Part shown: positions 1-53,785 of the stretch, piece by piece
How the letters are laid out: every line of letters starts with the position of its first letter
Numbering within the stretch: the first letter of the stretch is position 1
IMG/VR virus record: IMGVR_UViG_3300033486_000002
Span: 1 to 55,394 of that record
DNA length: 55,394 bases
Source of the DNA: a virus
Lineage: Duplodnaviria; Caudoviricetes
Direction: 5' to 3' (one strand)
Made by a program: the position numbers and the translations under genes
The notes under the pieces: generated by a model
Database searches by the model: none
Seen by the model: only the letters and a program-made list of their open reading frames with translations
What the model was told of the DNA's origin: nothing

Positions 1-127
1 CGCGATCCGCCTCGGCACGGGCCGCCCGCTTCTCCATCTCAGCGAGGGCACGCACAACGGCTTCCCATGACGAGATGATGCCCATACCGAGTTCGCGCGC
101 TGCGCCAAGCGCCCTCATCTCCTCGTC
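1..127. repeat. Terminal direct repeat, left copy (127 bp); probable circular-assembly overlap
   Basis: Bases 1-127 are identical to 55268-55394; 127 is a common assembler k-mer size; a minus-strand ORF runs in frame across the junction. Confidence 0.95.
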
Positions 128-223
128 TTCCATTCGGTCGCACTCGATACGGTAGGCGCAGCTATCCCACGCGGAGCACTTCAAGGGTTCTCCGGCTTGC
201 GGGTCGCGCGGGTCGTCGCTCAT
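1..223 (-). CDS. 5' part of a hypothetical phage protein spanning the circular junction (continues to stop at 55119)
   Basis: ATG at 223 (MSDDPRDPQAGEPLKCSAWDSCAYRIECDRMEDEE) is in frame with MRALGAARELGMG of ORF 55119..55385. Confidence 0.65.
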   Translation of the reverse strand, partial: MSDDPRDPQAGEPLKCSAWDSCAYRIECDRMEDEEMRALGAARELGMGIISSWEAVVRALAEMEKRAARAEADR

Positions 224-280
224 CGGTCAGCCCTCCCGGTTGCTAGTTGTCGCCAAGCGTCGGCGACAGTATGGACACCC

Positions 281-709
281 TTACTCGGCGGTTTGCCACA
301 ACAGGCGCCCGTAGTCTTCGTCGCCGAGGAGCCGACGCAGCGCCGTAGCCGAGCGTCCACAAGCGCGGTAGACCTTCTCGGCTTTCCGGCTGTCCGTGTC
401 GTAGCCGTACTCCGAGCAGAAGTCCGCGAAGTCGCGGGCGTTCTCGTAGCCGCTCGCATCGCTCGCCAAGCAGGACAGCACGTCGTCAATCTCGGGCTCC
501 TTGCCCGCGTGCACGCTGCCCATACTGTACCAGAACGTGTAGGCTGGCCGTCCCTTGAGGATCAGGCGGCAGCGGAAGTGATAGGCGTCGGGCCATTCGG
601 CTAGCCGTGCGGCGCCTGGGGTGTCCTCGCTGGCCGTGAGCCGTAGCCCAAGCCGCGCGGCGAAAGCGTGATACGTCTCACGCTCAGGGGTTGCGGTGTC
701 CTGCGTCAT
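281..709 (-). CDS. Hypothetical early phage protein, 142 aa
   Basis: Protein-like composition; strong RBS GAGGAG upstream of ATG. Confidence 0.8.
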   Translation of the reverse strand: MTQDTATPERETYHAFAARLGLRLTASEDTPGAARLAEWPDAYHFRCRLILKGRPAYTFWYSMGSVHAGKEPEIDDVLSCLASDASGYENARDFADFCSEYGYDTDSRKAEKVYRACGRSATALRRLLGDEDYGRLLWQTAE

Positions 710-791
710 CTTTGCTCCTCTGTTCGAGTGAACCTAGAACCTACTACGCCTTGCCGGGGTAGCGCCCGGCTCGCCTGCGCCTACGCCAGCG

Positions 792-1028
792 TCACGCGCC
801 CGGCTCCCGCGCGGCACGGTGGGCGGCTAGCGCGGCCCGGATGCGGTCGTAATGCCAAGCCGTGTCAAACGGGACCTGCGTCGGGTTCGCTTCGTTCCGC
901 AAGCGCCCGCCATAGGTCGCGTCACTCTCGGTATTGAGGGCGCTTTCCAGCGCCTCGGCGAGCGCGTCCGATAGCGCACGCTCGCGGGCTAGGGCTTCGT
1001 CAATGATGTCGCGCTCGGTCTTCGTCAC
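792..1028 (-). CDS. Hypothetical early protein, 78 aa
   Basis: RBS GAGGGGGAG before GTG; helical composition. Confidence 0.65.
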   Translation of the reverse strand: MTKTERDIIDEALARERALSDALAEALESALNTESDATYGGRLRNEANPTQVPFDTAWHYDRIRAALAAHRAAREPGA

Positions 1029-1050
1029 GTCTCCCCCTCGGTGTGTGTCA

Positions 1051-1090
1051 GGCCCCGCGCGGGAGTCGAACCCGCGAACGCCTACGGGGC
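1051..1090 (-). ncRNA. tRNA-minihelix-like structure (outer stem plus T-arm with UUCGACU loop)
   Basis: Minus strand reads GCCCCG-UAGGCGUU-CGCGGG-UUCGACU-CCCGCG-CGGGGC-C; intergenic; no D or anticodon arm. Confidence 0.45.
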
Positions 1091-1097
1091 GGTACGG

Positions 1098-1304
1098 CTA
1101 GCGGTCGTAGTCGCTTTCGGGCGCACCGTCCAGCGCGTCGTAGCGCCGCGCCCACTTATCGAGCGTGCGGCGTCCGCGAGGCGACTCGCTGAACTCGTGC
1201 GGCTGGGTGCCCCGGTCTAGGGCCAGTTCGCCCTCGAACGGGCGGCCTTCGGCGCGTGCCATCCTGCGCGCCCTGCGAATCTCTCCCTTAGTCATCCTCA
1301 CCAC
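1098..1304 (-). CDS. Hypothetical early protein, ~65-68 aa
   Basis: ORF with GGAG/GAGG upstream; same operon direction as neighbours. Confidence 0.6.
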   Translation of the reverse strand: MVRMTKGEIRRARRMARAEGRPFEGELALDRGTQPHEFSESPRGRRTLDKWARRYDALDGAPESDYDR

Positions 1305-1373
1305 TCCGGTTGTGTGTCAGGTCCGGTCGGGGCCGCGACGCCCCCGCGCCAACATCGCGCACCGGACGGACGG

Positions 1374-1511
1374 CTAACGCTCCCGTTCGATCCGTGCCGA
1401 CAGCGGCATCGGGCGGCGCTGCGTCAGCTTGTCGTACAGCCGTTGCGACAGCACCAACTTGGGTAGTTCGGGCGCGGGAGCCTGCTGCGGCGGGGTGGAC
1501 GTGTCGATCAT
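1374..1511 (-). CDS. Small protein (45 aa), possible ribbon-helix-helix DNA-binding protein
   Basis: Hand-translated MIDTSTPPQQAPAPELPKLVLSQRLYDKLTQRRPMPLSARIERER; GGAG RBS; first ORF after the sigma54-like promoter; fold is a guess from the strand-LS-xx-LY-xx-L pattern. Confidence 0.4.
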   Translation of the reverse strand: MIDTSTPPQQAPAPELPKLVLSQRLYDKLTQRRPMPLSARIERER

Positions 1512-1546
1512 CGTTCGGGCTCCGGTGAGGGATGCCCCTCTCTACC

Positions 1547-1561
1547 GCAACGCCCGTGCCA
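1547..1561 (-). promoter_or_regulatory. Sigma54 (-24/-12)-type promoter for the leftward early genes
   Basis: Minus strand TGGCACG-GGCG-TTGC matches TGGCACG-N4-TTGC with exact spacing, in an intergenic region 35 nt upstream of an ATG. Confidence 0.6.
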
Positions 1562-1676
1562 CGGCGCAAGTACTTGCGCCGCCTACGCTTGCCAATTCCG
1601 CACCCGGCGCGCACTCCCGCATTCCGCACGAAGTCTCGCAGAATACGAGTGCAAAGACTTGCATGCAAGAACTTGC
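1562..1676. promoter_or_regulatory. Three GCAANNACTTGC palindromic operator/enhancer-like sites
   Basis: Perfect 20-bp palindrome CGGCGCAAGTACTTGCGCCG at 1562-1581; GCAAAGACTTGC at 1651-1662; GCAAGAACTTGC at 1665-1676. Confidence 0.55.
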
Positions 1677-1936
1677 ACGATATCACGATGATATCACGTC
1701 CGCTCGCTACACCGCACCGCGCGTACCGCCTGCGCTGGCGACCGCGCTGCCGCTTGCGTACGCGGCGCCCGCCTGATGGGTACTCTTCCGGCGCCCGTGC
1801 TCGTGCCTACGCGCGTTGTCCACACAGGCGTGGGCGCTGGCTGGGCGTGATCGAGCGCTAATGTAGCTCGACGTGGGCGCAAGCGCGGGGGCGGAAGTGG
1901 CGTAAGTTGTTGGCGCGCGTGTGGTTAGCCCGAGCT

Positions 1937-1964
1937 ATGTCGTATAATGGAGATTATGTTAAGC
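1937..1964 (+). other. dif-like XerC/XerD recombination site (candidate attP or dimer-resolution site)
   Basis: ATGTCGTATAA-TGGAGA-TTATGTTAAGC has the 11-6-11 architecture; right arm matches the XerD arm TTATGTTAAAT at 9/11 and left arm resembles XerC arms; AT-rich island in a GC-rich region. Confidence 0.8.
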
Positions 1965-2388
1965 GCCTGGGGAGCCCCGCGCCAGCGACCGGCAGCCCCC
2001 CCGCGAGGCGACGACACATAAGCGTACTTTGCCGGGACCTGCGCGAGACGAAATCCGCGAGTTTCCACACGGTGGGCGTGCGCGGGAGCCTCGTACGCGA
2101 GCGCAAACGGGGCAAGGACGCGCGAACGGGGGTCAGGCGGTCCAGTGGCGGGTCGGGGGCGTTCGTGGCTCCTGGGGGCGTTTGCGGCGTTTCTGGGGGC
2201 ACACAGGGTCCTACGTCTTCGGCAATAGTGCGGCTAGCTTGGGTGTTGGCGTATGGCCCGTGCCCGGCTGGCGTATAGAACTCGCCGTGAATCCGTCGGG
2301 TCTTCGAGCAATGGCAACATTTCTCGTCCCACTGAGGCGGGTTCGAGGTGTAGACGATACCGCAATCGTGCCAGCAATGCTTGGGCAT
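1954..2388 (-). CDS. Cys/His-rich hypothetical protein (C-terminal extent doubtful)
   Basis: N-terminal HCWHDC...KCCHC; AGGAG RBS right after the initiator gene. Confidence 0.45.
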   Translation of the reverse strand: MPKHCWHDCGIVYTSNPPQWDEKCCHCSKTRRIHGEFYTPAGHGPYANTQASRTIAEDVGPCVPPETPQTPPGATNAPDPPLDRLTPVRASLPRLRSRTRLPRTPTVWKLADFVSRRSRQSTLMCRRLAGGLPVAGAGLPRRLT

Positions 2389-2396
2389 GGTTGCTC

Positions 2397-3245
2397 CTAG
2401 AACGGATCGGGCGTTTTGGGTGTCTCGTGGGCGATAATGTCGCCGATGGAGACCACGGGTGGGGCATCGGCGGCTGTTTCGGTGGCGATGTCCCAGACGA
2501 AGCGGTCGCCGGACTTCGTGCCACGGAGTGCGCGGAGGGTGAACTTGGCGTGGGGCTTGATCCAGTCGAGGTCGCCGTGGTCGGCGGCGGTGCGGAGGCC
2601 GGTGATGGCGTCGGCGATCTCGGCTTCCGGGAGGCCACGGGAGAGCCAGTGTTTGAGGATGGTCATGTCACGGGCGGGGTTGTAGCCTGCGGGTGGCTGG
2701 CCGAGGTAGGCGTCTTTGCGAACGGCGACCATGAGCCGGGACGCGGCGAGGTGTAGCTGGTTAGGGGAGAGGGTTTGTCGGGATACTGCTGTTTCGGGCG
2801 GCTGTGTCGAAATGACACGGCGAGCATTTTCGCCGGTTACGTTAGTAACCGAACTCCTGACTAAAGACTCCTGACTAAAGACTCCCTTCGCGAAGGTTTC
2901 GCGAGGCGTTCGCGAGAGAGTCGAGAGGAATGGCTTGGATGGGTGGTCTATCTTCTGGTGTTTCCTGAAGTTAGTGATGCGCCCGATTACGCCGTCCGGG
3001 GTGTCAAACGCCTCTAATACCCCAATTTGGATTAGGGTATCGAGTTCGGCCACCAGATCGGCCTCCGCGAGCCCCTCGTCGTGCGGATAGATGGACCCCA
3101 GAAGCTGCCTCGGATTGGCCCGGAAGTACCCTTCGTCGTCGGCCTGGGTGAGCAAGAGGAGGAACGTGTAGCGTATGTTTCGCGAGACCCTCGCGAGCCC
3201 CTTGTCGTGGGGTAGTTCGGGCTTCAACGTGCGGATTCTGGGCAT
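2397..3245 (-). CDS. Phage replication initiator / replisome organiser (lambda O-like architecture)
   Basis: N-terminus MPRIRTLKPE...ADDEGYF...NFRKHQKIDHPS is typical of phage initiator N-domains; GGAGGG RBS before ATG 3245; iteron-like repeats in the linker. Confidence 0.75.
   Translation of the reverse strand: MPRIRTLKPELPHDKGLARVSRNIRYTFLLLLTQADDEGYFRANPRQLLGSIYPHDEGLAEADLVAELDTLIQIGVLEAFDTPDGVIGRITNFRKHQKIDHPSKPFLSTLSRTPRETFAKGVFSQESLVRSSVTNVTGENARRVISTQPPETAVSRQTLSPNQLHLAASRLMVAVRKDAYLGQPPAGYNPARDMTILKHWLSRGLPEAEIADAITGLRTAADHGDLDWIKPHAKFTLRALRGTKSGDRFVWDIATETAADAPPVVSIGDIIAHETPKTPDPF
2834..2928. repeat. Putative replication origin inside the initiator gene
   Basis: Hairpin CGGTTAC-GTTA-GTAACCG (2834-2851); tandem 14-mer ACTCCTGACTAAAG x2.4 (2853-2885); TTCGCGA at 11-bp period (2887, 2898, 2909, degenerate 2920). 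Confidence 0.6.
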
Positions 3246-3413
3246 TGCGGCCCTCCAGCTAGTTCGGCCCGGTCCCCACCTGGGGAACCCTGCGCCCGGT
3301 ACACGCAGGCACAGGCAGGTGGGGAACACGGGCCGACGGCATTGCAGTCGCCAGCGGTTCCCGCGCCGACGCCTTCAACTTACGTGCACCGAACGCCAGC
3401 GCGCAAGTAGGCG

Positions 3414-3791
3414 TTAGCCGTATAGTTCACGGTGCATCTCGCGTTCGTGGGCTGTTGCGCGGGCCTCATCAAACACCTGCGCCATTTCCTTTTTGAAATC
3501 GAACTCGTCCATCTCGTATAAGAAGGGTCCACGTTCACAGGAAAGTTGCCGGATTGCGGCGAGGATACAGGCGGGGCAGTTGTGGGCGGCGACGCGGCAC
3601 GCATTCAGGCCCCCGGTGTAGAGGGCGCGGGCAAGCGTGGCGATTGGCGCCTGCTCCTCCTCAAGGAAGGCGCAGAGGCGGCACACGCGGTTAGGGTTCA
3701 TGGTGCAATGTAGTTCGTGAGCCGCCAAGGTGCGGCCACCGGACCGATTGCAGAAGTCACAGTAGTAACGCCAGCGTTTGATACGCCTCAC
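3414..3791 (-). CDS. Cys-rich zinc-binding hypothetical protein
   Basis: YYCDFC, HELHC, CRLC and HNCPAC motifs; probable GTG start coupled to the upstream stop. Confidence 0.65.
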   Translation of the reverse strand: MRRIKRWRYYCDFCNRSGGRTLAAHELHCTMNPNRVCRLCAFLEEEQAPIATLARALYTGGLNACRVAAHNCPACILAAIRQLSCERGPFLYEMDEFDFKKEMAQVFDEARATAHEREMHRELYG

Positions 3792-4105
3792 GTTCTCCTC
3801 CGCAAGTAGGCGACGCCGCAGTTGGGGCACGTTCGCGCGGCGCCCGGTGTGTCGCACAGCAGGCAGCGCGGCCCCGGCGGCCAGGAGCGTACGCGCAGGA
3901 CTTCGGGACGACGGTGCGGGACGCCGGGGCGGGGTCTGCGGGGGGCTTCGTTGTAGCAGAGCCAGCACCAGCGATGGTAGTGCGTCACGCCGTCAGCATC
4001 GACGTGCGTGGGGTGCGCGCGGGAAGGATCGGGCTTCCGCGCCCACGGCGTCCCGCATCGCTCGCACGCGCGAGGACGAACGCGCGTCCATACCTTGACC
4101 GGCAC
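3788..4105 (-). CDS. Zinc-finger hypothetical protein
   Basis: Four CxxC pairs (CERC, CWLC, CLLC, CPNC). Confidence 0.55.
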   Translation of the reverse strand: MPVKVWTRVRPRACERCGTPWARKPDPSRAHPTHVDADGVTHYHRWCWLCYNEAPRRPRPGVPHRRPEVLRVRSWPPGPRCLLCDTPGAARTCPNCGVAYLRRRT

Positions 4106-4498
4106 CTACGACTTCGGCGCTTCCGGCGGCTTGTCCACCATCCCGCGCCCGGCCCACGCGGAGATGACCGCGAGCGCTCCGGCGCCAGCGTCATGCGCCG
4201 CCGTGGCGAGCGCCTCCGCCATCGCGCGGTGCGCCGACTCCGACAACTCCATGCGCATGTGTGCCTCTCGCAGGTTGGCCTCCTGCGCCTTGCATCGGGC
4301 CTGCCAAGATGAGTAGGCAACCGTCAAGCCCGTCGCCGGGGTCACGTAGAACCCGAGGCCGCTGTCCTTCGGTCTCGGTTCGTAGTTGTGCTCCAAGCCG
4401 TACTCTAACTGGCGCAGTTTGCCTTCCAACTCTGCGATGCGCCGCTTGAGTTCGGTCGGCGTCGGCGGCTTCCGCTTCACTACCTTCTTCTTGGTCAC
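4106..4498 (-). CDS. Hypothetical protein, 130 aa
   Basis: Coupled to wecB stop (GTGA overlap); N-terminal coiled coil. Confidence 0.6.
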   Translation of the reverse strand: MTKKKVVKRKPPTPTELKRRIAELEGKLRQLEYGLEHNYEPRPKDSGLGFYVTPATGLTVAYSSWQARCKAQEANLREAHMRMELSESAHRAMAEALATAAHDAGAGALAVISAWAGRGMVDKPPEAPKS

Positions 4499-5592
4499 CG
4501 TAGCATCTCCTCTATCGCGTTACACGATTGGACTGCCGCACTCCCGTCACCAAACACCTGCGACGGGCGCTCGCTCAATTCCCCGGCCAGTGCGCTCCGC
4601 AGCGCCGTCGCCACCCCGTCCGCCGTCCGGCCCGCCAGCAGCGCGTGCCCCGCCGCGATGGCCTCCGGCCTCTCCGTCTTGTCGCGGGCAATCACGCACG
4701 GCACGCCCAGCGTCGCTGCCTCCTCGATCACCCCACCGCTGTCCGTCACCACCGCCCGCGCGTACGCCAGCGTACGGATGAATCTCGGGTAGGCCCACGG
4801 CTCCTCGACCACGATGTTCCCGCCGTCCATCCGCCGCTTCGCCTGCCGCTCGTGCCAGCGTTCCGCAACCGCCTGCACCGCTGGCGCCGGGTGCGCGGGC
4901 CAGCGGAACAGGAGCCCGCGAGGTCCGCAATGCTCTGCGGCCACCGCACTTACGCCCTCCATTATGTCACGCAACTTGCTGTCCCACGACTCCCTGCGGT
5001 GTAGGGTGATGATCACCGTCGGCGCCCGCAGGCACCTCGGAATATACCGCACCTCCAGCGCCCGCAGGGCGTCAACCACCGTGTTCCCTACTAATAGACT
5101 ACCGGCCACCAACCCTTCGTCGTGTAGCGCCTTGAGCGCTGTAGGCGTTGGCGCCAGCCGCAACCTCGCCCATGTGTCCAGCCGCACGCGGTACTTTTCC
5201 TCCGGCCAAGGGTCCAGGATGTCATGCGTCCTGAGCCCCGCCTCCAGATGCACGAGCGGCCAGCCCATCGCGTGCGCCCACATCCCGCCCGCGTACGCGC
5301 TCGCCGTGTCGCCCTGCACTAAGACAACGTGCTCGGGATGCTCGTACACCCACGACTGGAGCCGTTCGACCACGGCATCCACGTAGGCGTCGGGGTCCCC
5401 GAAGTTGGCGACGCCCAGGTACTCGGGCTGGAACTCCTGCGGGAACCCCGTGTCGTCGAATAGGCGTTTGTGTTGGCCCGTAACGACGACAGTGACATTC
5501 CACTTGCGTCGCGTGGCCTCTCGGATTACCGGGGCCGTTTTGATTGCCTCTGGGCGACATCCCAAAACAATCAATAACGGCCTCATAACCAT
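4495..5592 (-). CDS. wecB: UDP-N-acetylglucosamine 2-epimerase (non-hydrolysing WecB type)
   Basis: Signature motifs GCRPEAIK, TGQH, LVQGDT, HLEAGLRT..DPWPEE, GNTVVDAL, TLHRRES, TDSGGVIEEA, TERPEA, FGDG. Confidence 0.93.
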   Translation of the reverse strand: MVMRPLLIVLGCRPEAIKTAPVIREATRRKWNVTVVVTGQHKRLFDDTGFPQEFQPEYLGVANFGDPDAYVDAVVERLQSWVYEHPEHVVLVQGDTASAYAGGMWAHAMGWPLVHLEAGLRTHDILDPWPEEKYRVRLDTWARLRLAPTPTALKALHDEGLVAGSLLVGNTVVDALRALEVRYIPRCLRAPTVIITLHRRESWDSKLRDIMEGVSAVAAEHCGPRGLLFRWPAHPAPAVQAVAERWHERQAKRRMDGGNIVVEEPWAYPRFIRTLAYARAVVTDSGGVIEEAATLGVPCVIARDKTERPEAIAAGHALLAGRTADGVATALRSALAGELSERPSQVFGDGSAAVQSCNAIEEMLR

Positions 5593-5660
5593 TCCCGTCT
5601 GAGGTTGTCGTTGCGGAGCACGTCCTCGTCAGTCATCGACATTACGGAGTAGGTTGCCAT
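5583..5660 (-). CDS. 25-aa leader ORF upstream of and overlapping wecB
   Basis: MATYSVMSMTDEDVLRNDNLRREWL; ATG lies 6 nt after the -10 box of the conserved promoter (leaderless). Confidence 0.45.
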   Translation of the reverse strand: MATYSVMSMTDEDVLRNDNLRREWL

Positions 5661-5666
5661 GCGCCT

Positions 5667-5698
5667 ACGGTAGTCCGCGCACGCCGCTCGCGCAAGAG
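5667..5698 (-). promoter_or_regulatory. Conserved phage promoter copy 1 (drives wecB operon)
   Basis: CTC-TTGCGC-N17(...GCGTGCGCGGAC)-TACCGT. Confidence 0.7.
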
Positions 5699-5703
5699 GC
5701 CGC

Positions 5704-5732
5704 TTGACGAGCGCGCGTGCGCGCCCTACCTT
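5704..5732 (+). promoter_or_regulatory. Sigma70-like promoter for the packaging/late operon
   Basis: TTGACG-N17 (contains GCGTGCGCG)-TACCTT; in-frame GTG at 5740, 7 nt downstream. Confidence 0.6.
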
Positions 5733-5739
5733 GGCACCT

Positions 5740-6318
5740 GTGACGAAGCCGCTCCCGCCCGTGCCCATCACCCAGCCGTACGACAACGCGCCCGGCGTGA
5801 TGCCAACCAAGAGCGTCCAGCACGGCGTCCGTCCGGCGCCACTCTCCCACGCCGAACGACGCTGCAACGAAATCTGGCTCCGCGTCGAAGGCACTCGCAT
5901 CGAGAAGGTCAACTTCATCCAGAAGGAACTCAACAGCCGCTACGGCGTTCAGTGGACCCCGCAACAGGTGATGGACTGCCTGTTCGACAAGCGCGCGTCC
6001 CGTATGTACCGGCAGGCCCTGCGCGCCAAGGGTCGCGCCCTCGCGCTCAAGAGCCTCCAGAAAGAGGTCCCCAAGGTCGTTGAGGACTACAAATGGGCGC
6101 GCGAGACCGCACGCGCCGAGGGCGACTACCGCGTCACCCACGATCAGGCCGTTGACCATCTCGACCGTCTCGGCGTCACACTCAAGAGGGAACAGGCGCC
6201 CGTGCAGTTGCAGGCCATCATCCTGCGCGGCAAGAACTTCGACGCCGCCACGCTGGATGTCCCGACACCCGCCATCGAAGCGGCGGAAATCATACCCGAG
6301 GAGGACGCGCCCGCGTGA
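5740..6318 (+). CDS. Putative terminase small subunit
   Basis: First gene of the late operon upstream of terL; helical ~190 aa; assigned by position only. Confidence 0.45.
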   Translation: MTKPLPPVPITQPYDNAPGVMPTKSVQHGVRPAPLSHAERRCNEIWLRVEGTRIEKVNFIQKELNSRYGVQWTPQQVMDCLFDKRASRMYRQALRAKGRALALKSLQKEVPKVVEDYKWARETARAEGDYRVTHDQAVDHLDRLGVTLKREQAPVQLQAIILRGKNFDAATLDVPTPAIEAAEIIPEEDAPA

Positions 6319-6877: not shown

Positions 6878-7174
6878 GTGCAATTCTACCAAATGGGAAT
6901 CGAGGAGATAACGGGCGTTGCCAACGACGCCAGGCAACTCGTCATCGGATGTTTGTTGAACCAGGGCGTAATCTCGCCAGAGGCTGCCGAATGGGCGGGG
7001 CGCCATGTCGGGGTTATTTGTTTTCGACCCGGCTTCTGGGGCAGGCTGTGGGACAAACTGGTGGGCATCAAGAAGGACGAGGACGGGTTCAGGTTGAGAG
7101 TGATGACCGAGATTCCGTGGGCACAACACACGGCAGTCGCCAAGGACACGGGAGAACCGCCGTCGGATGCCTGA
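6878..7174 (+). CDS. Hypothetical protein, 98 aa
   Basis: Fills the gap, overlaps the terL start; AAGGA RBS. Confidence 0.55.
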   Translation: MQFYQMGIEEITGVANDARQLVIGCLLNQGVISPEAAEWAGRHVGVICFRPGFWGRLWDKLVGIKKDEDGFRLRVMTEIPWAQHTAVAKDTGEPPSDA

Positions 7175-8897
7175 ATCGCTGAAGCTCGTTCCCGGTAGCG
7201 AACGCTGGAAGGCGCTACGCCAGCGTGCGCTCACCGACCTGTTCTGGCTCAATGACGTGGTTCTCGGCTACGGGTCCGTTGTGCCGATGACTATGAAGGC
7301 GCACCTCCTGATGTGTCGGTTCGCGGAATCCCGCACGGGCCACCCCGCGCTCGACGGCGCGTACTACCGTCTCATTACGGTCCCGCGTGAGGTTGGCAAG
7401 AGCACTTTGGTCACGCGCGGGCACGCGATTCAGCTTGCGCTCGCGCATCCCGGCATCAGCATCCTCATCGCCAACGAACGGGAAAAACAGGCGGTCGGCT
7501 TCCTGTCGGAGATCAAGGCGCACTTCGAGAGCAACGAGTTCCTGCGCGCCCTGTTCCCCGAGCGGGTGCCGCCCGACTTCCGGCAGACGCAATGGAGTGA
7601 GACGGCCGCGACGCTTCCCCGCCCCACCGCGCGCCCGGAGCCGACGTTTCTCGCCACGGGTGTCGGCGCCGCCATCACGGGACTCCATCCTGACCATGCG
7701 TTCGTGGACGACATGATCTCTGACGAGGCAATGGAGAACGCGCGGGCGGGCTCCTTCCTGCTGGTGGAGAAGGCCAACCGCTGGTGCAACCAGTTGGTGC
7801 CCATTATCACCCGTGGTAAGCCGTATTGCGGCATCACCTTCATCGGGACGATGTGGTGGTACGGGGACTCTTACGAGCACATCGAGAAGGCGTTCGGCTA
7901 CGAGGAGGAGCCGCGCCCGTTCAGCCTCGCGTTCCGCGACGACGCCGGAGGGGAACACCGTATATCTCTTACGCGTGGGATTGGCAACCACATCACCAGC
8001 GGCGTGTACCGGAGGGGCGACCTCGCGGTGTTCCGCCGCAGCATCATCGAGGACGGCACGAGTTTCTTCCCCGAGCATTGGCCCGACGATGAACTAGCGA
8101 AGTTCCGGGTCCGCGACTCCGTGCTATTCGCCGCCAACATGATGAACAGTCCGGCAGACGAGATCACCGCCAGTTTCAAGGCCGACTGGCTGCGCTACTA
8201 CAACCGCCCGCACGAGGACACGCTGGAGTTCTCCGACGGCACCCGCACGCACTACGTTCAGGTGCGTGACCTCGACTGCGTGATGAGTGTGGACCCCGCG
8301 TTCACCGAACGGGCGACCGACTCCAGCCGCGCGGCGGTCGTGGTGACCGGCAGCACCGCGAACGGCAAGCGGTTCGTTCTGGAGGCCATCGCGCGCCGCC
8401 TCGCCGCCGACTCGCTGGTGGACCTCATCGTCACCACGGCCCTACGCTACAAGCCGCGCAAGTTGCTGGTGGAGAAGGTGGCGCAACAGGCGGCGTTCAT
8501 CGCGCTGCTCAAGCACGCGCTGGCGAAAGTCAATTCCACGTCCACCGTGGAGGAGGTGCATCCCGCCGGTCGCCAGAAGGACGTGCGGATTCTCCAACTG
8601 GAGCCATACTTCCAACGCGGCGACATCCTGCTCCACGGGAGCCAGCACGACGCGCTGGAGGAGTACCGCGAGTTCCCGCGCGGGCGGAACAAGGACCTAC
8701 TGGATGCGCTGGCCTACCAGCCGGAGTTCTGGCTCAAGCCGCAGGACGGCACGCTCTCGTTCACGGCGACCGCGCAGGAACGCATAGCGAAGGAAATGGA
8801 GATACTCTCTCAGCGGCTCGGGAAACCCGTCGGCCCCGTGCCGCACCGCGCCCGCGACGCCGGGCGCATCAGAGCCGACGGCAGCCGGAGGTGGTAG
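7167..8897 (+). CDS. terL: Terminase large subunit
   Basis: Walker A PREVGKST, ITGLHPDHAFVDD Walker B region, FIGT coupling motif, RNase H-like SVDPA and DLLDALAY. Confidence 0.92.
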   Translation: MPESLKLVPGSERWKALRQRALTDLFWLNDVVLGYGSVVPMTMKAHLLMCRFAESRTGHPALDGAYYRLITVPREVGKSTLVTRGHAIQLALAHPGISILIANEREKQAVGFLSEIKAHFESNEFLRALFPERVPPDFRQTQWSETAATLPRPTARPEPTFLATGVGAAITGLHPDHAFVDDMISDEAMENARAGSFLLVEKANRWCNQLVPIITRGKPYCGITFIGTMWWYGDSYEHIEKAFGYEEEPRPFSLAFRDDAGGEHRISLTRGIGNHITSGVYRRGDLAVFRRSIIEDGTSFFPEHWPDDELAKFRVRDSVLFAANMMNSPADEITASFKADWLRYYNRPHEDTLEFSDGTRTHYVQVRDLDCVMSVDPAFTERATDSSRAAVVVTGSTANGKRFVLEAIARRLAADSLVDLIVTTALRYKPRKLLVEKVAQQAAFIALLKHALAKVNSTSTVEEVHPAGRQKDVRILQLEPYFQRGDILLHGSQHDALEEYREFPRGRNKDLLDALAYQPEFWLKPQDGTLSFTATAQERIAKEMEILSQRLGKPVGPVPHRARDAGRIRADGSRRW

Positions 8898-9496: not shown

Positions 9497-11440
9497 GTGC
9501 CCGAGCCCGTGAAGTGGGGGCCACGCCGGGAACAGGAGTTCGTGGAGTGGCTCTGCACGGACTTCACCAACGCCCTCGGCGCACGTTCCTCGCTCGAAAC
9601 CGCATGGTCCGAATGGCTGGACGACTACCGAGCCCCGGAATCCACCGAACTCAAACACTTCCCGTTCGAGGGCGCCTCGAACCGCACCGTGCCCGTGACG
9701 GCGATCAATGTGGACCCGCTGGTTGCACGGTTCATGACCACGTTCCACGCGCCACCGAACCTGTGGACCCTTCAGGCGTTGAACGAGCGGTGGGTCGATA
9801 TCGCCAAGCCGCTACAGGACTATCTCCAGTACCTCGATTCCCACGTCCTGCGGATGTGGGATGTGGACTACCGCGCGTGCCTCGAACTCATCAAGCTCGG
9901 CACCGCCATCTACAAGCACGGCTGGCTGTTCGAGCGGCGCCCGTCATGGGTCTACGGTCCCGACGGGCGACTGGTGCGCGGCACCAAGGTCGTCTCCCGC
10001 CCGTTCGTTGATCACGTCAAACTCCCCGACTTCGTTATCCCGCCCGCGTACTACGCCATCCAGCCCGACGACCAGGGCGGGGCGCCGTGGGTCGGGGAAC
10101 GCCACCAACTCAGGCTTGATCAGTTCCTTGCTCGCGCGAAGGGGCAGGACCCGTTCCTGCCGAACTACGACGCGGCGGCGGTGGAGAAGGTCAAGAAGTT
10201 CTACGAGACCAAACGCGACACCGTGCAGGCGAAGGTCGATACACTGGAGGACTACGCCCCCGTTCGGCACGAGAAGATCGACCTGTACGAAGTCCACGCG
10301 CGGTTCGATTGCTCCGGCACCGGGAACGTGGATGACATCGTCGCCATTGTCCACGTCGATAGCCGCACGCTCCTACGGGCGACGCTAAACTACTACGCGC
10401 ACGGCGAGCGGCCCTACGAGGTGGCGCGGTACTTCCGCTCGGACGGGTTCTACGGCATCGGCGTCTGCGAACAGAGCGAGATGTTCCAAGGCGAGATAAG
10501 CGACCTGAGCAACTTCCATCACGACAACGTGATGCTCAGGAACAGCCTGACGCTCGGCATCAAGCAGGGAGCGAACTTCCTGCCCGGCGAGCCCATCTAT
10601 CCCGGCAAGGCGTTCGTCCTCGACAACCCGCAGACCGATATCCGGGAACTCAAGTGGGGTGAGGCGAGCCAGACCACGCCGCAGTTGCTCCAGTTGTATC
10701 AGGCGATGGGCGAGCGGCGCACGGGACTCTCCGATATCCAGTTCGGCTCCATCCAGCAACTCCCCAGCCGCACACCCGCGACGACGATGATGTCGCTGTT
10801 GCAGGAGGGCAACCGCCGGTTCGACCTCTCGCTCAAGGACATGAGGACCGACTGCCTTGCGCGTATCGGCCTGCGCACGTTGCAGAACCTCCAGCAGTTC
10901 GCGGCCAACCCCGCGCAGAACCCCGACGGCCAACGGTTCCTGGCGCTCGCCATCCAGACGCTCGGGAGCCCCGAGGGCGAGGCGGTGGCGTCGGTACTCA
11001 ACATGCCGCTGGAGGACGTGGGCAGCGGCATCGGTGTCAGCCTCACCGCGACGAGCGGGATGGTGAACAAGGAGATAGAGAAGCAGTCCTTCCTCGCGCT
11101 GGTGCAACTACAGGTGCAGTTGGGCCAGCAGTTCATCCAACTCGCGCAGATAGCCGCCAACCCGCAAGTCGTGCAGATGATGCCCGCGCTGGCGCAAGTG
11201 GCGACCCAGGTGGCGCAAGGATTCACCGAACTCCAACGTCGGCTACTGGAGCAGTATGACATCCGCAACCCTGAAGAGATTCTGGTTGACGCTTCGGTCC
11301 TGCAATCCGCTGCGCAAACCATCGCCGCAGGCAACCTCATTGCCCCTGGGGCTTACGGGGGAGCAGGTGCAGGCCCTCCGGGCGCTGACGCTGGCGCCGG
11401 GATGGGCGGTCTACCTACTGGCTTTGGAGCGGCTGGCTGA
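9497..11440 (+). CDS. Portal protein (podovirus-type)
   Basis: 647 aa after terL; PFEGASN, FYGIGV, ERRTG...TAT-like motifs; Q-rich C-terminal barrel; AGGAGGT RBS. Confidence 0.88.
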   Translation: MPEPVKWGPRREQEFVEWLCTDFTNALGARSSLETAWSEWLDDYRAPESTELKHFPFEGASNRTVPVTAINVDPLVARFMTTFHAPPNLWTLQALNERWVDIAKPLQDYLQYLDSHVLRMWDVDYRACLELIKLGTAIYKHGWLFERRPSWVYGPDGRLVRGTKVVSRPFVDHVKLPDFVIPPAYYAIQPDDQGGAPWVGERHQLRLDQFLARAKGQDPFLPNYDAAAVEKVKKFYETKRDTVQAKVDTLEDYAPVRHEKIDLYEVHARFDCSGTGNVDDIVAIVHVDSRTLLRATLNYYAHGERPYEVARYFRSDGFYGIGVCEQSEMFQGEISDLSNFHHDNVMLRNSLTLGIKQGANFLPGEPIYPGKAFVLDNPQTDIRELKWGEASQTTPQLLQLYQAMGERRTGLSDIQFGSIQQLPSRTPATTMMSLLQEGNRRFDLSLKDMRTDCLARIGLRTLQNLQQFAANPAQNPDGQRFLALAIQTLGSPEGEAVASVLNMPLEDVGSGIGVSLTATSGMVNKEIEKQSFLALVQLQVQLGQQFIQLAQIAANPQVVQMMPALAQVATQVAQGFTELQRRLLEQYDIRNPEEILVDASVLQSAAQTIAAGNLIAPGAYGGAGAGPPGADAGAGMGGLPTGFGAAG

Positions 11441-18646: not shown

Positions 18647-20377
18647 GTGGCACCATCTCGGCACGTCTACTGTACGCCGTCCACCGCCCACGTCGTGTTG
18701 AACCGACTATCGGCGCCGAAGACGGTAACGATGACCCTGTATGCAACCGGCATCGGGCCTGGAGTAGAGGCGTTGAACAGGGCTCAGGTCTCCGGGGCCG
18801 TAGACAACGTCACGCTTACCAGCACCCCCGCAGACGGCGCAGAGATAAACATGGGTTTCGGACCCTATAATGGCCTTGTGGGCGTGGACCCGGAGCCGAT
18901 GATTACGCTTTCGGCCACACTCACGGTGGACGATCCGGGGGAGGAGGTCGGCGAGGGCATGTTCCTCGTCTGGCCCTTTGGCCCGATATACGTTCGTGGC
19001 GCGAGTGAAGACCAACTCATCTACGATACGTTTGTTGACGCCGACGGGACGTTGTTGGATGACCACACTCCCGATACTCAACCAGTGGGTGGTGTGGCGG
19101 GCTGGATGGGGTCCGCGTGCAACAACAATGGGTCCGTAGACAGTGCCTACGGGTCGGCGTTCGTCATTGGGGGCAACAGCGGCAACCGCTACGCGGGACG
19201 GCTCTACAGCGGGCTCAATGACGACTACTGTGTCTATGCGGACATCCGCCGAGAGGGTAGCGGGGTCGGGGACCGGGAACTCGGCATTAGTATCCGCAAC
19301 TCGCAGGTGACGGGGGTGGTGGATACCGCCGTTGACACGCTGCGGTTTTACGAGGAGTACAACAGCGCCACCACCGCCAACCTGACGTGGTCACAGGTGT
19401 CGAACCTACTCTCGGGCGGCGGCGACGGCTCGACACTAACGTCGCAGGTGGGGTTCACGTCGGTCGCGTGGGCGCAATGGGGAATCAAGCGCCTACTGAT
19501 GCACGTCAGCGGGGCCACGGTGCGCCTCTACAGCGGCGACAGCGCGGGTGCGGGAAACTATACGCTCCACAAGACGTTCAGCCTCACGACGGCGTGGAAC
19601 GACGCCAGTCACCAGTATTGCGGCCTCACGTACACGCACTTGGATCAAGGGGCGGGATTCGCGCTGTTCGGGTCCAGCCAGATAAGCCTCGGCATCTCTC
19701 CCTCGGGCCAGAGCGCGGTCTGTGTGACGGGGTACTCGGACAGTACTGGCACGGTGACCGGCGTCGGTAGCGTCTTCCATATCCCGCTTGGGTTCCCGGT
19801 CTCCGACCTTACCAGCACCACGTCCTATGTGGACGGGACCGGATGGCTGGAGGTGTCGATGGTCACCACCACCAGTCCAACGGACGTAACGATGGTCTGC
19901 AACGCTGCGAGCGCTACGACGGGCGTGCAGCGGGCGGTGGTGACGTTTGACTCCCCGGACACGGATAATGTGGCACAGGATATGCTCGTCAGTTTTCTCG
20001 TCACGACCGGAGTGAACAACGGGACGGCGGAGATCGTCGGTGCCCCCGCGAGCCTACTCAAGAGTAGTATGATCTCGGTCGCCGCAACGGGCTACGAGGT
20101 CACGGGGTCCGAGGCGACGGTCCTACGTTACGCCGCCATTGACGCGGCGAGCGGCGAGATGGGGGCCACGCTGGCTGATGTCACACTGGCGAAAGGGCAC
20201 GTCTGGGGAGTGGGCGGAACACGGTGCGCGCTCGCGGGAGCCCGGACAATGCTACTGCTGAATGGATGGGGCAAGCCCGATGCGGCGGGTGACTCCGACT
20301 GGACTGAGGGCGCTGACCCCGATGCGACGACGTGGACGAGCGAGTGGCGGCCCCGCGCCAAACTGCCGACACCGTGA
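18647..20377 (+). CDS. Beta-rich virion/receptor-binding-like protein
   Basis: 576 aa, S/T/G-rich; DTFVDADGTLLDDHTPD lectin-like segment; structural context. Confidence 0.6.
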   Translation: MAPSRHVYCTPSTAHVVLNRLSAPKTVTMTLYATGIGPGVEALNRAQVSGAVDNVTLTSTPADGAEINMGFGPYNGLVGVDPEPMITLSATLTVDDPGEEVGEGMFLVWPFGPIYVRGASEDQLIYDTFVDADGTLLDDHTPDTQPVGGVAGWMGSACNNNGSVDSAYGSAFVIGGNSGNRYAGRLYSGLNDDYCVYADIRREGSGVGDRELGISIRNSQVTGVVDTAVDTLRFYEEYNSATTANLTWSQVSNLLSGGGDGSTLTSQVGFTSVAWAQWGIKRLLMHVSGATVRLYSGDSAGAGNYTLHKTFSLTTAWNDASHQYCGLTYTHLDQGAGFALFGSSQISLGISPSGQSAVCVTGYSDSTGTVTGVGSVFHIPLGFPVSDLTSTTSYVDGTGWLEVSMVTTTSPTDVTMVCNAASATTGVQRAVVTFDSPDTDNVAQDMLVSFLVTTGVNNGTAEIVGAPASLLKSSMISVAATGYEVTGSEATVLRYAAIDAASGEMGATLADVTLAKGHVWGVGGTRCALAGARTMLLLNGWGKPDAAGDSDWTEGADPDATTWTSEWRPRAKLPTP

Positions 20378-22260
20378 AGTTGCCCGTAGTCGCCGCCTGT
20401 CTGGTGCGGAACGAGGCCGACCGCTACTGGGCAAAAGTACTCAACCACCTGAGTAAACAGGTGGATGGCATCGTGGTAGTGGATGATCACTCTACGGACG
20501 CCACGCCCGCGATTACGGACGCCTGCCCCGCCGTAATCAAGCACATTCGGCTAACGGACGAGCCGATGTGGGGAAAAGAGGCTCCGGTACGGCAACTACT
20601 GTGGGAGGCGGCGAGTGAACACGGACGCTGGGTGCTGGTCAACGACGCGGACCAACTGCTGGTCGGTGACGTGCGCGCCCTCTGCCGGACCACGGAACAC
20701 AACTCCTGGGCCTTTGTCCTGTACGACCTCTGGGGCGACCGGAACCATTATCGTGACGATGCGTTCTGGTGCGCCCATCATCATCACCGGCCCTGGTTGT
20801 TCCGTCCTGATCGAGTGCCTGACGGCTGGCGAGCAGAATGGGCGGGCCGTGGCGTGCATTGCGGTCACGCCCCGAGCAACTTCCCGCTCTCGTGCGGCAT
20901 TGCGCCGTCTGAGAGTTTTCATTGGCTCCATCTGGGCTACGTTACTGCGGCTGACCGCGAAGCGAAACTAACCCGTTACCGTTCCGTAGGAGGCCAGTTG
21001 ACCGAGCAAGAGCGCGCCCACGCCGAGAGCATCGCCGACGTGAGTCCCGTGGTGCGCATCCTTCCGTCCGAGAAACCCATCCGTGTCCTCGTCGGCACAT
21101 CGGTACGCAAACGGCTGGACGTGCTGCGTCCGCACCTCGACACATTGGCGTGGCAGGACCTCCCGCCCAAGGTGCAGGTGGACTACTGTTTCGTACCGGA
21201 TTTCGAGGACCAGACCGATCCCGCGTGCCTTTACCTCCAGCAATGGACGGCAGAGCACAAGGGCGTTCTCCTACAGGGGATGCCGCCGACACCGAACGAC
21301 TTCCGCGATAGTGGCGACGTGACGCACCAATGGACCGCGACGGCGATGACCCGCGTGGGACAGAACAAGAACCGCATCCTGCGCCACGGGGTCCAGAACC
21401 ATTACGACTACATCTGGCTCGTGGATAGCGACCTTCTGCTGGACCAGTACGTGCTGCGGAGCCTGCTCGACTGCCGTCAGGCCATCGTGAGCGCCGTCTA
21501 CTGGACGCGGTGGAACAAGCCGGGGATGCACTCCGCGCCGCAGGTGTGGCTCAAGCACGTCTACGAACCGTTCCAGTCCGGGGGCACGGCGCGTGGCCTT
21601 ACCGAACGTGAGTTCCGCCAGAAACTCGTGTCCCGGAATCTGACACAGGTCTGGGGTCTCGGGGCCTGCACCCTGATTCGGCGCGACGTAGTGGAGAAGG
21701 GTGTCGGGTTCCATCGGTTCCCTGGCCTGCCGGGTGGCGGGCTCTGGGACGGGGAGGACCGCCACTTCTGTACTTGGGCGGAGCACCTACACGTCCGCAT
21801 GGCGGCAGACCCCTGGCCCGACATCTTCCACGTCTATCACGACGACGACACCGCCCGTATCGGGGAGATGAAACAGCGATTCAGTGAGGGACGTGGCTAC
21901 CACCCGGAACTCGGGGACCTCGTGAGCCTACGCCTGAGCCCGCTGGAGGAACCCGGTGGCCTGAGCGAGATGGTGCGGTGCCGCCTCGGGGACGGGACGC
22001 TGATGCCCGACATCGAGGGTGCGGTGACGAAGATGGCGCGTGGCGACGTGCGGATTGTCCGCGTGCAGTTCCCCGCGCACTACCCGCTGGACGGCCTGCG
22101 CAACCGCGCGCGGCTGATTGAGGTCGTGCTTTGCGACCACAAGCAGAACGGCTGGCCCCCTGTGCTGGAGGATGAGATGTACGTAACGCCCACGGGCGCG
22201 CACGTTGATGCAACGGCGCTGGCGCCGGAACAGGAAGCTCTGATGGCGGAGGACGCATGA
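20374..22260 (+). CDS. Double family-2 glycosyltransferase with C-terminal trigger-factor-type FKBP-like domain
   Basis: GT domain 1: VRNEA, VVDDHSTDAT, NDAD, HLGY. GT domain 2: WLVDSD, GACTLIRRDV, GEDRHFC. C-terminal LGDGTLMPDIEGAV...VQFPAHY. Confidence 0.85.
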   Translation: MKLPVVAACLVRNEADRYWAKVLNHLSKQVDGIVVVDDHSTDATPAITDACPAVIKHIRLTDEPMWGKEAPVRQLLWEAASEHGRWVLVNDADQLLVGDVRALCRTTEHNSWAFVLYDLWGDRNHYRDDAFWCAHHHHRPWLFRPDRVPDGWRAEWAGRGVHCGHAPSNFPLSCGIAPSESFHWLHLGYVTAADREAKLTRYRSVGGQLTEQERAHAESIADVSPVVRILPSEKPIRVLVGTSVRKRLDVLRPHLDTLAWQDLPPKVQVDYCFVPDFEDQTDPACLYLQQWTAEHKGVLLQGMPPTPNDFRDSGDVTHQWTATAMTRVGQNKNRILRHGVQNHYDYIWLVDSDLLLDQYVLRSLLDCRQAIVSAVYWTRWNKPGMHSAPQVWLKHVYEPFQSGGTARGLTEREFRQKLVSRNLTQVWGLGACTLIRRDVVEKGVGFHRFPGLPGGGLWDGEDRHFCTWAEHLHVRMAADPWPDIFHVYHDDDTARIGEMKQRFSEGRGYHPELGDLVSLRLSPLEEPGGLSEMVRCRLGDGTLMPDIEGAVTKMARGDVRIVRVQFPAHYPLDGLRNRARLIEVVLCDHKQNGWPPVLEDEMYVTPTGAHVDATALAPEQEALMAEDA

Positions 22261-44597: not shown

Positions 44598-44852
44598 GAT
44601 GACCCATACGAGGCCGCAGTTGAGGCAGACGCCGTTGCGCGTACGGTAGCCGCAGGCGCAGGCGCGGCCCGTGGGCCACGGTGGGGTAGGGTACCGTTTG
44701 CGCATCGTACGGGCGCGGCATACGTGGTCGCGGGCGCGGCGTGCGCGGCAGTCGCGGCACCGCGACTCGTGGCCGTCGGGATTGTCGGCCTTGGGACCGA
44801 ATGCACGGAGCGGGCGGACGCGTCCGCAGTCGGCGCACGGCTTGCGGCTCAC
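44577..44852 (-). CDS. Zinc-finger protein
   Basis: CADC..F...DG..SRCRDC followed by CACG...CLNC. Confidence 0.55.
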   Translation of the reverse strand: MSRKPCADCGRVRPLRAFGPKADNPDGHESRCRDCRARRARDHVCRARTMRKRYPTPPWPTGRACACGYRTRNGVCLNCGLVWVIRVRTAT

Positions 44853-45553
44853 CGGCTGGCCTCCTCGGGCCACTCCTGCCGCCATAGGTCGTCCGGGATA
44901 CGCCCCTGCTGGCCGGGCCGGGCGACGCTGTCCTGCTTGACCCAGACGGGCACCCCCGCGCGGTCGCACTCGTCCACCAGCAGGCGGAGCCAGTCGAGTT
45001 CCATCGGCCGATGCTTCGGCCCGGACTCGCCCCCGATGACCACCCAACCGAGCAGCGCCAGCCACTCGGGTCGCAGCGTCACGCGAGCGATGAGCGGCTC
45101 GCAGGAGAGCCAGAGCACGCCGCCAGGGGCTACGCGGTGCGTCAGGAGCGCGGGCACGCGCGCCGTGGCGTGCTGGTCCTCGACCGATACGCCGAGCCAG
45201 ACGTTCGGCGGCGCGATCCAGTCAACCGGGATGCCCCACGGCCGCTTGGTCACGATCTGGTACGTGTGCTGCGGTGCGCGGGCCATCACGTCCAACGCTT
45301 CGTCGCGCCAGTTGTCGGCGTGCGGATGCCAGAAGTCCGACCACGAGCAGACGAACACCTTGCGCGGCTCCTTCCAGCGCAGGGGTGCCGTGAACGTCGC
45401 TTCGCTCGCCCGCACCACGACGCCGGGGTCCTCGCCGTAGCGCCGCTGATCCCGGTACATATAGCAGTTGGCGCACCCCGCGCTGACCTTCGTGCAGCCG
45501 CGCCAGGGATTGTAGGTGGCGTCGGTCCAGGCGATCCCGGTGCGGCTACCCAC
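44849..45553 (-). CDS. Phage Gp37/Gp68 (DUF5131) radical-SAM-like protein
   Basis: IAWTDATYNPWRGCTKVSAGCANCY, FVCSWSD, TKRP, WLGVSVE, SCEPL, WVVIGGESG, KQ. Confidence 0.9.
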   Translation of the reverse strand: MGSRTGIAWTDATYNPWRGCTKVSAGCANCYMYRDQRRYGEDPGVVVRASEATFTAPLRWKEPRKVFVCSWSDFWHPHADNWRDEALDVMARAPQHTYQIVTKRPWGIPVDWIAPPNVWLGVSVEDQHATARVPALLTHRVAPGGVLWLSCEPLIARVTLRPEWLALLGWVVIGGESGPKHRPMELDWLRLLVDECDRAGVPVWVKQDSVARPGQQGRIPDDLWRQEWPEEASR

Positions 45554-53061: not shown

Positions 53062-53399
53062 TCGGGCCACTCCCCTAGCGTGAACGTGATGCCGAGGCGT
53101 CGGCACACGCGGTTGGCGGTACTTACGAGCGCCGCAACGTGCGCGTTCTCCATCCGCCGCCACTGCGCGTCGCCCATCCCGCAGTACTGTGCGGCTTGGG
53201 AGATGGTCCAGCCGCGCCGTTCGCGTTCGCTGGCGAGCGCATCGCCGAACGCTTGGACGACGTACCACCCGCTCGTGCCGCGTTTGCGGCGGTTGAGCGG
53301 GCGGCGTTGGCGCAGGAGCGACGGCGCTGGCGGGGCGCCTGAGGGTGCTACTGAGGTTCCGGTACTCTGTATCGAGCATCGGGGTGGCTCAGGGGGCAT
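53058..53399 (-). CDS. XRE-family helix-turn-helix regulator
   Basis: FGDALASERERRGWTISQAAQYCGM....WRRMEN...VCRRLG. Confidence 0.75.
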   Translation of the reverse strand: MPPEPPRCSIQSTGTSVAPSGAPPAPSLLRQRRPLNRRKRGTSGWYVVQAFGDALASERERRGWTISQAAQYCGMGDAQWRRMENAHVAALVSTANRVCRRLGITFTLGEWPE

Positions 53400-53746: not shown

Positions 53747-53753
53747 ACCGCAC

Positions 53754-53785
53754 ACAGTAGTCCGCGCACGCGAGCGTGTCAAGAG
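53754..53785 (-). promoter_or_regulatory. Conserved phage promoter copy 3 (drives the groES operon)
   Basis: CTC-TTGACA-N17(...GCGTGCGCGGAC)-TACTGT; ATG 7 nt downstream. Confidence 0.75.

Follow-up and report, generated by a model that had tools for sequence, protein, structure and literature searches.

Both arms of a Gemmatimonadota chromosomal dif, around a private spacer, in tailed phages with no detected recombinase

Exploitation of the host Xer recombinases has been documented for plasmids, filamentous phages, double-jelly-roll phages, satellites, and genomic islands. The plasmid sites cer of ColE1 and psi of pSC101, as PMC5357621 describes them, lie on extrachromosomal replicons without a recombinase of their own; they keep arms like those of the host dif, have their own central region and flanking accessory DNA, adjoin replication functions, and recombine with each other rather than with the chromosome. 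The IMEXs, among them CTXphi, VGJphi, TLCphi, the gonococcal genetic island, and the dif-type double-jelly-roll vibriophages, also lack an integrase and carry a dif-like site for XerCD; these filamentous or double-jelly-roll phages, satellites, and islands are found integrated, flanked by two sites. In the account of PMC5357621, the central region of IMEX sites stays homologous to that of dif, one arm is often degenerate, and a repressor gene often adjoins the site, as rstR does beside attP in Vibrio IMEXs (PMC12715192, PMC5357621). Phage P1 encodes its own recombinase together with ParAB. Its Cre-lox cyclises terminally redundant DNA, and lox lies near pac. Cre-loxP is also described as the multimer-resolution system of P1 (PMC10999674). 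In the literature searched, with the supplements of PMC12715192 outside its scope, we found no case of a tailed phage with a host-Xer site.

The window analyzed here, meaning the whole stretch of DNA, comprises the 55,394 bp of an IMG/VR virus record that has a 127-bp terminal repeat. Because this repeat has the size of an assembler k-mer, the record is read as a circular assembly, and in all four site-bearing genomes are circular assemblies. At positions 1937-1964 on the plus strand, read directly, stands the 28-mer ATGTCGTATAA-TGGAGA-TTATGTTAAGC, which consists of a XerC-type arm (1937..1947), a phage-specific 6-bp central region or spacer (1948..1953), and a XerD-type arm (1954..1964). The first-pass annotation had described it as a dif site with a XerC arm, a 6-bp spacer, and a XerD arm, and the sequence bears this out, with an 11-bp arm on each side of the 6-bp central region and a partial dyad symmetry in the inner arm bases (ATAA/TTAT). 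The 28-mer forms a 29% G+C island in a genome that is ~66% G+C throughout. Its core, ATAA-N6-TTATGTNAA with up to one mismatch, occurs once in the window compared with 0.03 expected, and any core match at all was obtained in 3 of 100 shuffled windows. The 28-mer is real and not a product of chance.

Which bacteria carry a matching site? An arms-only search, with 22 specified bases and a free spacer, of one genome per species from 185,579 species gave five matches, all of them MAGs titled Gemmatimonas, Gemmatimonadales, or Gemmatimonadota. Each of the five genomes has exactly one copy, in flanks unrelated to the phage, and its left and right arms are identical to the XerC-type and XerD-type arms of the phage in 22 of 22 bases; the spacers are GATGTA, GAGATG, TATGTA, and, twice, GATATG. 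The phage carries both arms of the host dif exactly. In a sample of the phylum, 111 of 301 genomes match at up to three mismatches (108 with one copy and three with two), compared with none for the reversed-pattern control, and in one family 228 of 251 genomes match a 17-base core at up to one mismatch. Some of the genomes counted here are flagged as unpublished (G067 and G191 for the phylum sample; G067, G191, G332, G394, G437, and G466 in the 251-genome family sample); without them the counts are 109/299 and 222/245, and the conclusions do not depend on them.

The location of the host site is also that expected of a terminus site. In G247, on a contig of 2.39 Mb, it is ~20-30 kb from the maximum of the cumulative GC skew, and the mean skew is +0.020 on its left (20 bins) and -0.020 on its right (10 bins; p=0.001). 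In the host genome G010, a gene 20 kb from dif codes for a XerD equivalog (352 bits against a cut-off of 330), and a XerC-best paralogue scores 320 bits, 15 below the cut-off of 335; two high-scoring Xer paralogues are present in five of five host genomes examined. Because the host site is single-copy, conserved in the family, near the GC-skew switch, and accompanied by encoded XerD and XerC, we identify it as the chromosomal dif of Gemmatimonadota. The search that the first-pass annotation had proposed, for a bacterial dif matching the 28-mer, thus produced one, and from it the host of the phage is predicted to be a member of the Gemmatimonadota.

Two further observations concern the host loci. 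In 27 of 35 host dif loci (L024-L028, L034-L063), a GTGGANAA motif follows the XerD arm at a distance of exactly 16 nt; one further locus has it at another nearby offset, and it is missing from most phage copies; this DnaA-box-like motif may make the chromosomal dif composite, as an accessory or loading site. Furthermore, contigs of two host genomes end at dif (G277:C7/C212 and G138:C70/C171; L139-L142), with overlaps of 141 and 127 nt to the next contig, and several viral contigs end <250 nt from their site. Assembly graphs seem to branch at these places, and population variation, physical DNA ends, or repeats could be the cause.

The arms are shared with the host, but the spacer is not. Phage spacers (TGGAGA, GGTGGA, CATGCA, TCTGCA, GGCACA, GCTGGA, TGGACA, and TGCCCA) each have at least three G+C among their six bases, whereas host spacers such as GATATG, GATGTA, TATGTA, and TAGATG are AT-rich. 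TGGAGA occurs at none of the 114 host places listed for the phylum sample and in none of the 150 matches listed from the 251-genome family search. A 23-mer that includes the phage spacer was found within one mismatch in none of 401 family genomes. Eleven of the 401 (10/400 without G332, which is flagged as unpublished) are two mismatches away; ten of these have the host spacers TAGATA, TAGACA, or TGTATA, and the remaining one is a mobile contig. Outside the window, TGGAGA was seen once, in the phage fragment L175, the only such contig in one metagenome scan. Compared with the five exact-arm hosts, from which the phage's own host may differ, the phage spacer shares at most one base per side. 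On the other hand, it shares all three bases on the XerD side (AGA) with hosts that have GATAGA, a spacer present in five genomes among the places listed, one of them with arms one mismatch from those of the phage, and it agrees in four of six bases with TGTATA, TAGATA, and TAGACA, the first of which shares TG on the XerC side. As judged from these sequences, the conservation of the arms around a freely varying spacer is the mark of selection for XerC/XerD binding, and host-type arms around a central region unlike that of the chromosomal dif are the pattern of the plasmid sites cer and psi.

The core pattern is present in 57 IMG/VR contigs, 22 of which have a G+C content of at least 0.57; all 58 sites in them have a 6-bp gap, a length that the search pattern required. 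Two of these contigs belong to relatives of the window phage, and their terminases are 47-50% identical to its large terminase. G310 is a 47.4-kb circular genome with syntenic structural genes (29-56% amino-acid identity) and unrelated early genes; its site, with the spacer CATGCA, is 3.4 kb upstream of the terminase, in the gap that separates leftward early genes from rightward late genes. The 9.9-kb fragment L105 has an inverted site (spacer GGTGGA) beyond an epimerase gene. A portal-profile search of IMG/VR collected 22 related loci, eight of which have at least 5.4 kb upstream of the portal gene; four of the eight carry the site (L148, L154, L156, and L151, which is L105), and no site was found in L153, L155, L159, and the distant L165 (all incomplete records). 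In G310, L105, L148, L154, and L156, the site lies 5.5-7.6 kb upstream of the portal gene, and the portals are 42-56% identical. The first-pass annotation would have given up the Xer reading if related phages lacked the site; in fact, these five relatives keep it in position, despite unrelated flanks and early genes. The inner XerC-arm bases CGTATAA are kept in five of six family members and TTATGTTAAG of the XerD arm, with at most one change, in all six, while all six spacers are different.

A second group of phages with an SU10-type portal and a conserved large terminase (L084 and its near-identical kin, L085, L094, L090, L099, L101, L115, L118, L119, and the MAG contig G453:C441) carries the site just upstream of TerL. 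In both cases to which Pfam was applied, the gene immediately upstream of the site encodes an Sf6-type small terminase (TerS). The TerS proteins of this group, used as queries, found no homologue in the window. The orientation of the site relative to the terminase is uniform among all these contigs except in L105 and L175. The latter, a 1.6-kb contig, has its TGGAGA site at 109-136, with a different XerC arm and flanks unrelated to the window, 46 nt downstream of a DUF5681 small-terminase-like gene (182-751) whose score is at the cut-off. L084 and L091 contain, between terS and the dif-like site, three exact tandem copies of TGTGGATAAC and one variant, TGTGAGTAAC, 70-125 nt away on the XerC side; these repeats resemble perfect DnaA boxes. 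A drop in identity between L084 and L091 at the site, considered as a recombination breakpoint, proved to be an artefact of a 39-bp indel.

Other routes to relatives gave little. A near-identity search of window positions 1-6000 against cultured phages returned nothing, and the window portal had a single distant match (24.5% identity). The 19 loci collected through the replication gene are too distant and have no site in the stretches examined. A single-protein terminase search gave one distant locus, and a terminase search of the 301 Gemmatimonadota genomes gave relatives of 25-28% identity in 13 genomes. Three sequencing runs compared with the window yielded short, spurious pieces, none of them over the site, which weighs neither for nor against any reading.

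The phage sites have a flanking motif of their own. In the window, TAAGTTGTTG at 1903..1912 on the plus strand, 34 nt left of the start of the site, is a candidate accessory-protein site and the sole match to TAAGTYRTTG at up to one mismatch. Elsewhere the motif is found at -34 in G453, -33 in the L084 cluster, and -38 in G404, with further copies at +41 to +65. Within 120 nt of 21 non-redundant phage sites there are 11 exact matches compared with 0.07 expected, an enrichment whose significance is inflated because the motif was defined post hoc from four or five loci; the matches in L154, L091, L090, and L118 are independent of that definition. The remaining 336 kb contain five exact matches. 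TAAGTYRTTG was found in none of the host dif flanks, which have a different fixed motif, and it differs from the PepA/ArgR-type accessory sequence. We know of no Xer accessory factors in Gemmatimonadota.

The site lies in a gap of ~0.6-1.1 kb with leftward genes on both sides. Just to its right is the gene for a replication-initiation protein (2397..3329, minus strand; PHROG replication-initiator families, best E 1.7e-20), so that the expected location of the site, in a non-coding gap next to a replication gene, was confirmed. The match begins at residue 29, and the true start is likely near 3245. Relatives of this initiator are found in temperate phages such as Mx8 and also in plasmids. Between the two, an open frame of doubtful coding status (1954..2388, minus strand) has a Cys-rich stretch of ~45 residues at its beginning and its stop codon inside the XerD arm; it has no Pfam or PHROG match, its positional G+C is weak (0.61/0.62/0.72), and no homologue stands beside the sites of relatives. 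Just downstream of the rep gene, at 2101..2188, repeats of the GCGCAAACGGGG and GGGGGCGTTTGCGGC types, both direct and inverted and arranged in pairs, are candidate iterons or a candidate origin.

Within the gap, to the left of the site, a pair of adjacent TGCAA-N4-TTGCA palindromes (1650-1677) and a direct repeat, GATATCACG (1679-1698), are operator-like and probably are operators of the early region; comparable TGCAA..TTGCA palindromes adjoin the site of L105. The first-pass annotation had also placed an early promoter beside the site, but a sigma-70 consensus scan of 1200-2500 on both strands found no site and no -35/-10 pair. The DnaA-box-like TGTGGAYAA is not enriched in the window (nine matches compared with 9.4 expected), and a single TTGTCCACA is present at 1816-1824.

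On the right, the large terminase gene (7167..8897, plus strand; a weak match to the RNaseH domain of T7-type terminases) begins 5.2 kb downstream of the site and shares its orientation. It is followed by the gene for the SU10-type portal (9497..11440, plus strand; PF23899, E 4e-13), which served as the marker for collecting relatives. A UDP-GlcNAc 2-epimerase (4495-5592, minus strand; E 5e-62), which the window has in common with L105, and a family-2 glycosyltransferase of 642 aa (20332-22260, plus strand) may modify glycans of the cell surface or the virion. Most early genes of the window are without annotation; the leftward early region includes genes for a GroES-like co-chaperonin (Cpn10, E 5e-6; 53465-53800, minus strand) and a DUF5131 protein (44849-45613, minus strand).

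Does the phage encode a recombinase that could act on the site? The first-pass annotation had recognized none, and six-frame Pfam searches of the window agree: no tyrosine recombinase (PF00589), serine recombinase (PF00239), or rve transposase (PF00665) was found, even at E<=10. PF00589 was likewise absent from the window and 27 further records taken together, 26 of them site-bearing; six are at least 90% complete, and the circular G310 is rated 73% complete. The suggested profile scan for a missed integrase or ParA was also negative in the window and in the relatives searched: PF00239, ParB (ParB_N), AAA_31 ParA, and DUF3653 (XafT) had no match in the 12 records covered. A partition or accessory factor could be hidden among the unannotated early genes. 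As for regulators, a Cro/CI-type gene with an HTH_3 match of 68 bits stands 200 bp away from the site in G310, and the window has no clear CI-type repressor beyond a marginal HTH_3 match at 53079-53234 (22.9 bits against a cut-off of 23). In contrast to these site-bearing, integrase-less phages, G157:C14 (L170-L172), a circular 42.8-kb phage with an SU10-type portal binned in a Gemmatimonadota MAG, combines an integrase (89 bits) with the lack of a dif-like site. A related prophage, G141:C7, borders host dap genes; a 12/17 "relic" of the site upstream of its TerL is no better than chance by a rough estimate, and a tRNA-like fragment seen by eye at its border was not called by ARAGORN.

Taken together, the sequence comparisons identify the site as a putative mimic of the host dif under selection in recombinase-less tailed phages of Gemmatimonadota. 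Most likely, these phages borrow the host XerC and XerD to recombine their own DNA. In this proposal, the 28-mer would have been copied from a Gemmatimonadota chromosomal dif and kept by selection in a clade of tailed phages; XerC would bind 1937-1947 and XerD 1954-1964, and strands would be exchanged across the phage-specific TGGAGA. Since this spacer differs from those of the host, productive recombination would take place mainly between copies of the phage's own site, the partner being a second phage copy, and not with the chromosome. The purpose would be multimer resolution or cyclisation, and to a host-XerCD site with this specific role we assign an even chance. For multimer resolution, phage multimers would be converted to monomers during plasmid-like theta replication from the adjacent rep/ori. 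Alternatively, terminally redundant DNA would be circularised after injection, or concatemers would be processed, as in the case of P1 lox, a variant suggested by the tie of the site to terS and terL; cyclisation would require the site to lie inside the terminal redundancy. A factor bound at TAAGTYRTTG would control the reaction, in the manner of the accessory DNA of cer and psi.

Self-recombination is favored because the phage sites follow the plasmid pattern. Like the replicons of cer and psi (PMC5357621), the phage joins host-dif-like arms to its own central region and carries its site next to a replication gene; its flanking motif may be an accessory sequence. Its spacer is 6 bp long, as in dif and psi, compared with 8 bp in cer, and its flank is a 10-nt motif, compared with the ~180 bp of PepA/ArgR/ArcA sites at cer and psi. 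The replicon itself is different, a 55-kb tailed phage with a predicted Gemmatimonadota host, for which resolution is a prediction. The resemblance to P1 is looser. P1, which is maintained as a circle, likewise carries a recombination site, and the location between terS and terL in the second group can be compared with that of lox near pac. Unlike P1, the phage has no PF00589, PF00239, or ParA/ParB match and would use host enzymes; the site may work like Cre-lox, but it does not belong to that type, which has a phage-encoded recombinase.

Several observations do not sit easily with self-recombination. A purely lytic phage has no obvious need for multimer resolution, and the window site is ~3.7-5 kb from the packaging genes and does not adjoin them. 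The integrase-bearing G157:C14, which has no site, fits equally well with a site that replaces an integration function, and half of the eight informative portal loci have no site, though in incomplete records. The first-pass annotation had offered two functions, integration at the host dif or maintenance as a plasmid with dimer resolution. Of the two, a site that acts on phage DNA itself agrees better with conserved arms and a foreign spacer, but in the absence of a partition system and of a clear CI-type repressor, a stable plasmid prophage is unsupported; moreover, the link to packaging genes adds cyclisation or concatemer processing as a third variant that the annotation did not include.

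Could the site be an attP instead, and the phage a tailed IMEX that integrates at the host dif through the host XerCD and reaches lysogeny without an integrase? We consider this rather unlikely, although it is the main rival. One pair of strands would be exchanged where the spacers agree, and the junction would be resolved by replication or a resolvase; the AGA shared with GATAGA hosts on the XerD side, or the TG shared with TGTATA hosts on the XerC side, could allow such a step. The same reading would account for the 26 site-bearing records without an integrase beside an integrase-bearing relative without a site, and for a location at the edge of an operon, where the circle can be opened without damage to any gene. 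The HTH_3 gene 200 bp from the G310 site recalls rstR next to attP in the Vibrio IMEXs of PMC12715192, replication initiators like that of the window are common in temperate phages, and host MAG contigs sometimes break at dif, where population variation could cause the breaks. On the other hand, the five exact-arm hosts share at most one spacer base per side with the phage, none of the 401 family genomes comes within one mismatch of the phage 23-mer, and the search of 12 records for a XafT-like factor was negative. Furthermore, as PMC5357621 presents the known IMEXs, they keep central-region homology and tend to lose an arm, which is the reverse of the situation here.

The integrated form was also not found. 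No contig carries two sites in any of the 301 phylum or 251 family genomes, incomplete MAGs included; no related phage genes lie within 1.5-4 kb of the host dif at 35 loci; and no dif-flanked integrated copy was seen in these genomes and loci, the 57 IMG/VR contigs, or one metagenome spacer scan. The absence of lysogens is weak evidence because the hosts are represented by MAGs and by one genome per species. In every viral contig, the site is bordered on each side by phage DNA, and among 32 viral records with an end class, the only one classed as a provirus is unrelated. Hence, integration at dif through XerCD, as first proposed, has no direct support, and the related prophages with junctions at the site that the first-pass annotation had called for were not found in the genomes searched. 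Compared with the IMEXs, the phage shares the dif-like site and the lack of its own integrase, but it is tailed, has two perfect arms and a foreign spacer, and was not found integrated at dif between two flanking sites in the genomes searched.

Second matches were present in eight genomes: three overlaps, three mobile or phage contigs away from dif, and G411 and G438. The second copies in G277 and G138 are the assembler overlaps of 141 and 127 nt, which were verified, and that in G357 is a probable assembler overlap, judged from coordinates only. G404:C70 and G453:C441 are phage-like contigs and not at dif. In G079, the second dif-like site stands at the edge of an ~11-kb integrated element (G079:C1:957,000-968,100; L133, L134) that encodes a tyrosine integrase, a D5-type primase, and a Cro/CI HTH protein; its spacer, TAGGCA, recurs in the phage contig G453:C441. 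This site was rejected as a dif junction, as it has no partner within 60 kb on the left or 20 kb on the right and the element has its own integrase.

The site might also act as a decoy that binds XerCD without recombining phage DNA, so as to titrate or mislocalise the recombinases, block chromosome dimer resolution in the infected cell, or recruit FtsK. Perfect arms with a free spacer would suffice for pure binding, and many copies of the site would be present during replication, but neither the exact 6-bp spacing nor a single copy per genome would be necessary, and a decoy would not explain why the position of the site, and for the most part its orientation, is conserved with respect to the packaging genes; we know of no precedent and regard this as improbable. 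Least probable of all, and very unlikely, is a site without Xer function, whether a promoter -10 element (TATAAT is present inside the site at 1943-1948, in a regulatory gap), a terminase recognition site (in the second group the site is beside terS, where pac sites often occur), or passenger host DNA: nothing about a terminase or promoter site calls for identity with dif in 22 of 22 bases, phages with dissimilar flanks would not all retain a passenger fragment, and the promoter fails because no -35/-10 pair passes the consensus scan and TATAAT is lost in most relatives, wherever the spacer starts with a base other than T (GGTGGA, CATGCA, GGCACA, and others), while the arms persist.

The boldest proposal is the following, which we put forward tentatively and as somewhat doubtful. 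A clade of tailed phages of Gemmatimonadota would have dropped its own recombinase, and host dif arms, a private spacer, and a private motif would serve a step of the life cycle through the host XerCD; in its most extreme form, these would be the first tailed IMEXs, with lysogeny at dif and a motif-binding factor that sets directionality. If true, the dif module in two groups of tailed phages of 36-55 kb would extend the exploitation of Xer to the dominant class of viruses. It would also provide 22 bases from which the host of an uncultured phage clade could be predicted, in a soil and freshwater phylum that has received little study, and it would reveal a blind spot of lifestyle prediction based on integrases, by which such phages would be wrongly called virulent. 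The pattern of conserved arms and free spacer, together with the flanking motif, allows direct tests in cultured Gemmatimonas strains.
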